This document shows, piece after piece, positions 24,563-42,233 of a DNA stretch of 64,000 nucleotides. Below the pieces are notes generated by a model. It did not search any database. It saw nothing but the letters and a program-made list of their open reading frames with translations, and was not told where the DNA came from. The stretch's first letter is position 1. Every line of letters begins with the position of its first letter. The translations under genes and the position numbers were made by a program. The stretch is from Octopus vulgaris (lineage: Eukaryota). The stretch covers positions 44,516,001 to 44,580,000 of the forward strand of contig OX597834.1 in assembly GCA_951406725.2 (NCBI GenBank), written 5' to 3'.

Positions 24563-24658
<96 letters not shown>

Positions 24659-24880
24659 TAGAAATATTAAACTTTTAAATATCTCAGAGAGATATAACCA
24701 GTGATGGAACGATAGAGCAGTTGTGTACTGTCAACTTAACGTGACAGTCCCATAAAGGGAATCACACCACCGCTATTTAGCCCTAGGAAGCATCAACGCT
24801 TTCTGTCGGCCTTAACACATTTCCTGTGTCCTTATGTTTACAAAGGGGAGACAAGCACCCCCATCCAGCTAAGCCTGCCA

Positions 24881-24920
24881 CCAGAGACTAGTTTCTGAGT
24901 CTTGCTCGTCATCAGTCTGG
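24881..24920 (-). ncRNA. Minimal type-I hammerhead ribozyme motif with intact core
   Basis: Minus strand: ccaga CTGATGA c gag caaga ctc a GAAA ctag T C tctgg. 5-bp helix I, palindromic ACTAGT helix III, GUC cleavage triplet. Confidence 0.75.
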
Positions 24921-26729
24921 AGTACCATGGCCTGCTAGCTGAAGATACCTGTCTAGACTTTGTAAACATATATATATATATATATGTATATATATATTTT
25001 TTTTTTTTATTTTATCTAGTTTCAGCTCACGAGCTGTGGCCATGCTGGGGCATAATTTCAGTGAAGTATATTCGCTGATCACGAAAAATAGAAGTATTAA
25101 CTTTCTAAATATCACTATCGTTCCACTACTGCTTCTAGCTCTCTGAGATATTTAGAAATATTTAGAAATATTGTCGTCGATCTTTTCGGCTAAAATACTT
25201 CAAGGTATTGTCCCAGTATGGCCGCAGAGTGATGACTGGAACAAGTAAAAGAATGAAAGACCGAAACATATATATATTGAGCACACTACACACACACACA
25301 CACACACACACACAAATGCACATACATACACGCTCATATATACATGTACATACGTGTGTACACGTGTGTGTCTGTATGTGTGTATGTGTGTGTGTGTGTG
25401 TGTAAATATGTATCTAGGTGTATATTATACGCCTCAGTTTGTATGAGTGTATGTGTGTATGCGTGTGTACGCACACCTGTGTTTGTATGTTATAGAATAT
25501 ATGTTTGTATTCTTTAAGTGGATGTGTGTATATATATATGTGTGTGTGTGTTTATTTATTTATCTATTTATTTATTTATTTATTTATATATACATATACA
25601 TTACAGCATTGCGGCAGGTTCAAGCTCCTATATACACCCTTACATGCTTCTATGCAAACATACATACACGCAATGTGATTATTGCTTTCACCTTTCAATT
25701 CAAATTGATATCCTTCTTATACACTTCTTCATTTCCCAATATACAACAACTCACAACTATAGATCCTCATTATTTCCCTAAACCGACACGAAGCCCCCTC
25801 CAGCCCCATCTTCCTCTATTTTACACACCTCATCATCCAATCATATTACATTCAGTGATTTTTTTTTTAATATCTTTCCATCTCTTAATGACCAACTGAT
25901 TCTTGTGCAAATTTCTAATTAACCTTCAATGTACACGAAATATCCTCTCAGCGAGATAAGTAATTGATCTTCTAATTAACTGAGAAAGCAATCAGTATAT
26001 ACGGCATGGTTATAGAGATGATTGGATTTTCAAACCGAAATATTACGAGTTGGAATTTCAGAAAAGGAAACAAGCAACAAGAATCTCGCTTTTAATAATG
26101 TACGGCGTGCAGCAGCAGGAAATGACATTGTAGACTGTCGTATGGGGAGAATTCTGGCTAAACTGAAATAATTATCTTGGAGTAAGTACTTTCACATATG
26201 TATTCAGGGATTAAATGGACGGTGAAATTAAAAGCGATGACTATTCCCATACAGCGCTATATGTAATTATAATAAGACAAACATTAAATTGATCTTATTT
26301 AAAACCAGAAAGCAATAAAATAAAAGTAAATTAGAAGCGGGCAATAAAATTTGGGGACGAGGTTAATAAAAATTAAAATAAGTATATGTATTAAAAGCAA
26401 ACAATACGCAATATAAAATATGATTAATAAAATTTGCTAATTAATGAGCTAGTCTGAAGCGCATATTAACAGTACACATAATGAATGCCTCTAAATAATG
26501 TACGTAATATTGGTTTCATTAATTCCTAACAGTAAGTAGCAATAGAATACGAATCAATATTTATTCACATTATGTTGTATGAATATTTATTCTTGTATGA
26601 AAGTAGGATTCAAGCCCGGAATAACAGAGCTGATCGTCATTCTTCAAAGTCGTTTCAAAGCTAATGGATTCTATGCCGCTACATACATATTCAGTCGATA
26701 ATAGTGACAAGTCGTTATTAGGTTGGAGC

Positions 26730-27249
26730 AAGGCGGAAGAGCTGGCGGAAACGTTAGCACGCCGGGCGATATGCTTAGCGGCGCTACGTCTGTCCTTACG
26801 TTCTGAGTTCAAATTCCACTAAGATCGACTTTGACTTTCATCCTTTCGGAGTCGATAAATTCAGTACCAGTTACGCACTGGGCTCGATGTAATCGACTTA
26901 ATCCGTTTGTCTATCCTTGTTTGTCCCGTCTATGTTCAGCCCCTTGTGGGCAATAAACAAACAGGTATTTCGTCTGCTGCTACGTTCTGAGTTCAAATTC
27001 CGGCGAGGTCGACTTTGCCTTCCATCCTTTCGGGGTCGATAAATTAAGTACCAGTTACGCAATGGGATCGATGTAATCGACTTAATCCGTTTATCTGTCC
27101 TTGTTTGTCTCCTCAATGTTTAGCCCCTTGTGGGCAATAAAGAATTAGGTATTTCGTCTGCCGCTACGTTCGGGGTTCAAATTCCGCCGAGGTCGACTTA
27201 GCCTTTCATCCTTTCGGAGTCGATTAAATAAGTATCAGTTACGCACTGG
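26730..27249 (+). mobile_element. SINE family B, tandem trimer (one head, body repeated about every 185 bp)
   Basis: CGTCTG..CTACGTTC.GAGTTCAAATTCC occurs three times, near 26790, 26975 and 27160. Confidence 0.9.
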
Positions 27250-33313: not shown

Positions 33314-34034
33314 ATATATGTACATATACATACCCACCAAAAGTCCATTTTTTATTCTGTTGTCCTCAACCTTGATATTAAATATGCTCGCAGTAAACCA
33401 TAATACTTTTCAGCATGGCTTTTGATTGGGGAAGCTAATGTTTATATGTCTTGTTCAGAGTTATCAACAACTATCATGGAATGAGTAAGAACTATTTCAG
33501 TTTCTACATCACCCGATTTGTAGCCATGAAACTGAGTTGCCAATAATGCTGTTGGTGATATCAAAAACTTAAGATTTTGTACAGCAAATATATTTTACTA
33601 CAAAAATTAACACCAAACCGAAGCTGGTTCGCATAATTTTGAGGTCAGTTGGGAGGTGATGTTAGGATTTACTTCTAATCTAAGCTGTCATTGTACATGT
33701 TTTTGGTGTTAAAAATTTCAGCATCATTCATCAGAAAATGACCTAAAAATATATTTATAAAGAAGAATTGTTTGGTTGATATTCCTCGTGTGCTGATTCT
33801 GCCCATAAGACAGGAACTAATAATGCAATATAACTGTAAGTCATAACACCCAGGCAAAGCCAGGATGCATTGCTAGTATTCTCCTTGTCCTGTCTTTTAC
33901 TGTTTACATTTTGTACTCTCGTTACTGTCCTGTTTTTGTTACCATTTTTACCCCTCCGCAAAAAGATCTTAAATTTTATTTTGCTTTTCGCGGGAAGGAA
34001 AGTTTCTATCGAAGATGCTTATCGCCTTCACCTT

Positions 34035-34203
34035 CCAAACACAGAGTAGATGAAACCATGGCGACTGAAGAAGGGGAATTTTCCTTGTTTTATTTGTCCT
34101 GAACTCTATTTTTTTGTTGTTTAAGAAAAATGTCCAGTTCCTTAGTTTTGTGTCTATGTTTTCATTTCTCATTGTGTTCGACGTTTTTTGGTGTCCTGTA
34201 CCC
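34035..34203 (+). repeat. Unclassified TA-associated repeat, homologous to 41996-42165 (-)
   Basis: Shared GAGTAGATGAAAC..ACTGAAGAAGGGGAAT and CTTATTGTGTTC.ACGTTTTTT..TCCTGTAC-like ends. Confidence 0.7.
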
Positions 34204-41995: not shown

Positions 41996-42162
41996 TGTAC
42001 AGGATATAAAAAAACGTTGAACACAATAAGGAACGAAAACATAAAAAGAAAAACATAGAAACGAACATTTTTGTGAAGAACGAAAAATAACAGAGAAACG
42101 AGACATGCAACAAAAAGAATATTCCCCTTCTTCAGTTGTCCCTGTTTCATCTACTCCGCGTT

Positions 42163-42165
<3 letters not shown>
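41996..42165 (-). repeat. Unclassified TA-flanked repeat, homologous to 34035-34203
   Basis: Minus strand starts CGAAACGCGGAGTAGATGAAAC directly after (TA)n. Confidence 0.7.

Positions 42166-42233
<68 letters not shown>

Follow-up and report, generated by a model that had tools for sequence, protein, structure and literature searches.

The systems closest to the locus described here are the metazoan non-LTR retrozymes, which include units of 350–390 bp in mussel and the axolotl elements Rtz_331 and Rtz_353 (Cervera and de la Pena 2020, PMC7229834). A self-complementary helix III is a hallmark of dimer-type hammerheads (PMC4209133; PMC7229834). An active retrozyme is defined by Li, Clavereau and Pollet (2026, 10.64898/2026.07.22.740005) as two consecutive units, and lone monomers are viewed as offspring unable to transpose; of nine Xenopus retrozyme dimers reported there, one was cleaved in vitro. 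The same authors propose that retrozymes depend on Penelope-like elements (PLEs), based on co-occurrence and pLTR homology in 35 mostly vertebrate genomes. As to PLEs themselves, the purified Poseidon protein cleaves both strands of AT-rich DNA, extends them, and uses two internal starts on the RNA; the start site was alike on both strands, and hammerhead mutants left the insertion unaffected (Frangieh et al. 2024, PMC11167929).

The window analyzed here is a 64,000-nt stretch of Octopus vulgaris DNA, and the features of the insertion found in it are listed in Table 1. The feature is very probably a dispersed, ~4%-diverged copy of a ~354-nt non-coding hammerhead repeat (a non-LTR retrozyme), likely inserted by a PLE and likely inactive or weakly active. 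The octopus unit shares with the metazoan non-LTR retrozymes its non-coding nature, a length within 150–450 bp, a canonical-type type I hammerhead, and a GC content below 50%; the family likewise occurs both in tandem and dispersed, its predicted circle is self-paired, and PLEs are present in the genome (PMC7229834). Axolotl HHR_Amex2 carries U·U at the base of helix II, the same place as the mismatch of the octopus family, and HHR_Amex1 has a palindromic helix III needing dimers, as the octopus helix III is palindromic (PMC7229834). Unlike in the axolotl retrozymes, the octopus mismatch is C·A (with the variants U-A, C·U, and U·U) and is joined with a weak palindromic helix III. The family also differs from the retrozymes described in PMC7229834 in that it is known here from sequence alone and mostly as monomers or partial tandems. 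Judged by these features, the family is a new addition to the known class of metazoan non-LTR retrozymes. No octopus or cephalopod hammerhead or retrozyme family was described in the titles and abstract openings of the papers listed in literature searches, and the short-stem-III hammerheads of Lünse et al. or the supplements of retrozyme papers may include the motif.

Table 1. Features of the retrozyme insertion, in positions of the window.
Feature	Positions	Strand	Composition or basis
Insertion as a whole	~24659-25165		main arm, TA run, foreign piece, tail of preceding unit, inverted arm
(TA)n/(TAGA)n microsatellite next to the main arm at its 3' end; probable target site	24565..24658		
Main arm, covering unit positions ~1-314 of the retrozyme repeat (~354 nt)	24659..24968	-	ends at fixed 3' point B
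Point A, the other fixed 3' end of the family (after CUCUAU); read through in the window copy	24710..24716	-	
Long hairpin extending helix I; structure conserved in the family, with compensatory changes	24833..24970	-	fold and covariation
Three changes around loop 1 (24925, 24880, 24879)	24879..24925	-	break two pairs kept in the family
Type I hammerhead: helix I CCAGA/UCUGG; CUGAUGA 24915-24909; GAAA 24895-24892	24881..24920	-	
Palindromic helix III / loop 3 ACUAGU; predicted dimer interface	24887..24892	-	
Helix II: C·A plus GAG/CUC, loop CAAGA; C10.1 (24908) opposite A11.1 (24896)	24896..24908	-	
TA tract: expansion of the internal ATTATATA where two units join, no element boundary	24968..24997		
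Foreign ~50-nt piece with A-rich end inside the junction; resembles the 3' end of another high-copy repeat	25000..25051	-	
Tail of the preceding unit, covering its positions ~290-352	25052..25113	-	homology to the unit
Short arm in inverted orientation, from unit positions ~258-305, placed back to back with the main arm	25115..25165	+	

The main arm differs from the commonest family letters at 12 of 310 positions (3.9%), and by homology with the unit the whole insertion is a partial tandem. The 13-bp inverted repeat at 24833–24845 and 24958–24970, which the original prediction had described as closing a structure that starts at the edge of a TA tract, is present. However, the unit runs ~175 nt further, to 24659, and resumes beyond the TA tract; thus, neither the repeat nor the tract bounds the element. 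The exact core, the strong hairpin, and the TA on both sides of the 13-bp repeat might also be read as an active ribozyme used by the host or a MITE-like hairpin element with 13-bp terminal inverted repeats, but such an origin is extremely improbable given the homology past both repeats, a divergence about equal to that of the sister copies, and changes that worsen the active fold. A MITE was rejected because copies of the family end at unit positions ~260 and ~314, away from the 13-bp repeat. The summed depth of the assembled contigs of sequencing runs is very high at 25020–25061, over the foreign piece, which may be a SINE. The insertion would have been interrupted later by this fragment of another repeat and by a TA expansion. 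Elsewhere in the window, 2.5 tandem copies of a 184-bp unit (26797–27249, 88% matches) look like a common short interspersed repeat, and another dispersed repeat, which has a worn CUGAAGA motif resembling a hammerhead, is present at 34031–34200 (+) and 41998–42166 (-) in copies that are 73% alike; more copies of the latter occur in the sampled genomic loci, some near PLE remnants.

The minus-strand hammerhead named in the original prediction is exact at 24920–24881 (CCAGA-CUGAUGA-C-GAG-CAAGA-CUC-A-GAAA-CUAG-UC-UCUGG), and the predicted cut after GUC, as read from the sequence, is placed correctly between 24886 and 24885. A core of CUGANGA, GAAA, and NUH with helix I open is exact in the window copy, whose core and inner helices match the family. 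In an Rfam scan of 24650–24975, the hammerhead was undetected at E<=10; in a scan of the whole window, no hammerhead model was among the best 150 of 264 matches, and microsatellite noise was present. An antisense hammerhead was sought in the unit and was not found; a plus-strand CUGAAGA at 24939 is without GAAA. The rod-like hairpin of ~138 nt was borne out as a strong fold (-64.1 kcal/mol, z -5.83; none of 200 shuffles folds as well), but the minimum-energy fold differs from the hammerhead: it pairs CUG of the core with UAGUCU, and forcing helices I and II costs 6.5 kcal/mol. Of the flanking pairings proposed earlier, GCCA/UGGC and CAGCUA/UAGCUG are indeed complementary, but their registers are unused in both predicted folds, and the GCCA/UGGC complementarity arises only from changes common to the window copy and a few others.

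The cost of the hammerhead fold can be compared among the 33 of 82 copies with exact core and helices. It is 1.6–4.4 kcal/mol in 31 of them (median 2.4), 6.5 kcal/mol in the window copy, and 8.0 kcal/mol in a sister copy. The distance of the window copy from the median makes it a poor candidate for activity. The original prediction had called it the best candidate for an active self-cleaving RNA; this view finds no support in a copy with a single hammerhead whose 2-bp palindromic helix III needs a partner, with two pairs flanking loop 1 lost, and with a fold penalty that is the second worst of the 33. By these folding energies, the window copy appears worn and is unlikely to be an active ribozyme. 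Since the insertion contains one hammerhead only, it cannot release a monomer, and by the two-unit definition of Li et al. (2026) it is no active retrozyme.

Copies and tandem arrays, proposed as a check in the original prediction, were both found in the octopus genome (2.8 Gb). The query 24660–24968 gave at least 41 near-full-length matches with 89–100% identity, with 40 of 2854 candidates scored. Exact 21-mers from the core and the 3' part occur 289 and 570 times, respectively, and the reversed controls gave 0. At locus L011, three hammerhead-bearing units are arranged head to tail with a period of 354–355, and L056, L216, and L222 are likewise tandems with the hammerhead in consecutive units. 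The unit is 354–355 nt long with 41% GC, contains one type I hammerhead, and has no LTRs and no ORF; an ORF was also sought in the three-unit tandem, and none was found. The longest of the copies seen spans 2.7 units. Where the sequence continues upstream of unit position 1, it is the end of a previous unit. Folded as a circle, a real tandem unit reaches -106 kcal/mol (z -4.5 relative to 60 shuffles). The term retrozyme-like, used at the outset, agrees with the tandem units, the hundreds of dispersed copies, and the covariation of the stem. A scan of 70 loci, some of which overlap, revealed no PLE coding frame attached to the unit, and none lay between the matches at two loci where these are 2–7 kb apart. 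At L063 (4046–8292), inverted copies of a LINE-like element with endonuclease and RT frames have a retrozyme piece at each outer end. Assembled contigs from runs under two other organism labels contain the family with the same variant positions, and contigs from four runs of presumed RNA align to the unit; strand, ends, and circles are invisible in contigs.

A sister copy ~110 kb from the window copy carries the same three loop-1 changes and a TA expansion; its flanks differ, and its 3' end is at point A instead of B. The variant 20-mer of the window copy has four matches in the genome, of which three (L238, L239, and L240; G000:C21:44.43, 44.54, and 45.84 Mb) lie within 1.4 Mb on the contig of the window, with different flanks, and either local hopping or gene conversion may explain this cluster. 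The window copy and its sister fall inside the ACAUGU clade described below yet carry ACUAGU (FastTree, midpoint root), which would reflect either reversal or recombination. In contig set X1, the depth with the letters of the window copy is 0 at 24925 and 24879; rare variants drop from contigs, and this result therefore does not show that the letters are absent.

Homologous copies keep both the core letters (63–66 of 66 other copies) and the long stem, which covaries. Variation was examined in 138 distinct copies spanning the motif, including loci chosen for mismatches, of which 98 were parsed. The canonical G10.1-C11.1 pair closing helix II is absent from the window copy, which has C·A instead. 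This apposition is non-canonical, as the original prediction had stated, but it is no defect of the window copy: C·A is the commonest family state (64 of 98), followed by U-A (24), C-G (3), and others (7). The U at 10.1 is more frequent than CpG decay would give (C>T 36 versus G>A 9, as opposed to 35 versus 51 at three other CpG sites, in a comparison that omitted two more CpG sites with subfamily-level G>A), and from this excess some source elements probably had a U-A pair. The most distant copies have C·U, U·U, or A-U. Among the older relatives with 70–75% identity (L062, L067:7087-7200, and L202), the pair is A-U or U·U, which suggests that 10.1/11.1 drifted from a standard pair over the history of the family.

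Helix III reads ACUAGU in 61 and ACAUGU in 28 of the parsed copies, and a few extend to ACAUGCAUGU or a derivative. It is self-complementary in 98 of 100 among the matches listed and in 90 of the 98 parsed copies. The self-duplex of the palindromic helix III is predicted at -6.2 kcal/mol. In a minor subfamily (L219, L242, L124, L114, and L151), helix III is 4–5 nt longer; ACAUGCAUGU is still palindromic with a self-duplex of -14.7 kcal/mol, and by this energy the extension could permit a monomeric helix III. On a FastTree phylogeny (midpoint root, support values unread), ACAUGU forms one derived clade and the palindrome swap corresponds to about two events. These few independent changes, each keeping self-complementarity, point to cleavage as a dimer.

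Across 82 aligned copies, 92.8% of cells are paired, and double changes are present in 75 cells, compared with 33 in shuffles (0 of 500 reach 75) and 9–19 in slid controls. One outer-stem pair is G-C in 36, A-U in 25, and G-U in 9 copies, and the central pair of the palindrome is U-A in 46 and A-U in 31. As the shuffle ignores relatedness and the structure was taken from family members, this covariation is support short of proof. RNAalifold on gap-stripped columns did not recover the hammerhead, and named pairs were therefore counted instead. A UAC bulge and a CAA(A)GA loop are retained across the family; they are candidates for a tertiary contact between loops 1 and 2 and may resemble those of the Schistosoma motif.

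The 3' ends of the copies fall into two clusters, at unit positions ~250–266 (A) and ~300–323 (B). Each cluster is preceded by a YUCUAU-like motif, and the sequence beyond the end is often (TA)n or (TC)n. The 5' ends are scattered, and 40 of 88 motif-anchored pieces extend upstream of the cut site. Back-to-back arms are present in 70 of 176 insertions: 41 combine A with B, one is A+A, three are B+B (the window insertion among them), and 25 have an end off both points. Thus, A+B accounts for 41 of the 45 classifiable two-armed insertions (P about 5e-9); among single-strand insertions, 45 end at A and 50 at B. Fixed 3' ends with an optional tail between two starts of reverse transcription, 5' truncation, partial tandems, an adjacent inverted truncated arm, and AT-rich or microsatellite targets are also described for PLE insertions (Craig et al. 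2021, PMC8557442; Frangieh et al. 2024, PMC11167929). Unlike the PLE insertions in these two papers, the octopus unit is without an ORF and its tail is ~55 nt rather than 30–40. The octopus two-armed insertions also use one start point per end, whereas the start in vitro was alike on both strands (PMC11167929). From these footprints, the copies were likely pasted in by a Penelope-type enzyme. Li et al. (2026) propose the same dependence; in contrast to their argument, the link made here comes from insertion footprints, and a homologous pLTR was not found in the PLE loci examined.

A young PLE family is present in the genome, with intact frames of ~880–1010 codons, weak RT and GIY-YIG matches, and a CxxxxCxxC linker, from which it is assigned to Neptune as that linker is described in PMC8557442. 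It was located at L101 (3143–5791 and 8659–8694; G000:C10:97.81 Mb), C16:15.99 Mb, and C13:18.65 Mb, and forms ~6.2-kb tandems that contain a long spacer rich in CA and a minimal hammerhead-like motif (core CCGACGA). An autonomous PLE matching the unit was not found among the PLE loci sampled, and the young family shares no sequence with the unit. An RT remnant beside L037, 175 nt past a 3' end, likewise has no sequence link to the unit.

The PLE-like footprints raise the question of whether the repeat is itself the pseudo-LTR of an autonomous PLE whose coding part was unsampled, the copies being its 5'-truncated insertions. Hammerheads whose loop 3 is palindromic are found in PLE pLTRs (PMC4209133), and ~176 insertions were sampled against at least 570 motif matches. 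Nevertheless, this origin is very unlikely: copies that pass unit position 1 enter the end of a previous unit and no ORF, the three-unit tandem is likewise without one, the 4-bp helix II and bulged helix I form a canonical retrozyme motif unlike the minimal PLE form, and the young PLE in this genome has a different motif with the CCGACGA core.

Here, we propose a mechanism for the spread of the family as a non-coding retrozyme. Source loci with two or more units would be transcribed, two hammerheads would pair via the ACUAGU or ACAUGU palindrome and cut after GUC, and the monomers may be ligated into circles. The reverse transcriptase-endonuclease of a PLE would then cut AT-rich DNA on both strands and prime copying at unit points A (~260) and B (~314), usually one per DNA end, with a circular or an uncut, multimeric RNA as the template. 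Such an insertion would have produced the window copy.

The copy ends provide a view of the template. Among 297 copies matching just downstream of the cut, five begin exactly there (two of them with a few ambiguous letters), three begin one base later, and none one base earlier, a weak excess (P about 0.006–0.03 on a rough background). About 289 of the 297 read through the predicted cut, 262 with intact letters, checked no further upstream, and from this near-universal read-through the templates would be mostly uncut multimers or religated circles. Within single insertions, 27 of 33 pairs of repeated segments are more alike than the family median, and 13 of 33 have rare variants in common; this similarity does not separate circle from array templates.

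The read-through also bears on whether the family hammerhead is a dead passenger, in which C·A abolished cleavage, uncut tandem transcripts spread, and selection acted on the outer stem only. Because hammerhead mutants did not block PLE insertion in vitro (PMC11167929), the spread of the family is no proof of cleavage. Moreover, G10.1-C11.1 is called highly conserved (PMC4209133), a variant predicted to fold poorly nevertheless gave rise to two separate insertions, and the mean variation of core columns (0.032 versus a median of 0.047 for all columns) is as in neutral decay. Loss of cleavage in the whole family is still rather unlikely, as no subfamily-level change occurred at core nucleotides across a ladder of subfamilies, the palindrome was altered by a double substitution and by a 4-nt extension with self-complementarity kept, U10.1-A11.1 is enriched beyond CpG decay, and the axolotl retrozyme with U·U at this position cleaves (PMC7229834). 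A bolder model goes beyond the mechanism proposed above, and we put it forward tentatively, as somewhat doubtful: the A+B pairing (41 of 45) would record a dimeric Penelope enzyme gripping one retrozyme RNA (probably circular) at two defined points and copying from both ends of a double-strand cut, and C·A with the palindromic helix III would be a working, dimer-gated natural ribozyme.

Taken by itself, the locus in the window is a decaying transposon copy of an ordinary kind. The family offers a naturally occurring hammerhead variant, with C·A at the base of helix II and interchangeable palindromes, that is open to direct assay; together with the A+B rule for the insertion ends, these are family-level points of modest interest and are directly testable. 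The insertion ends offer genomic support for the mobilization of animal retrozymes by PLEs, which was mostly argued before from co-occurrence and homology.
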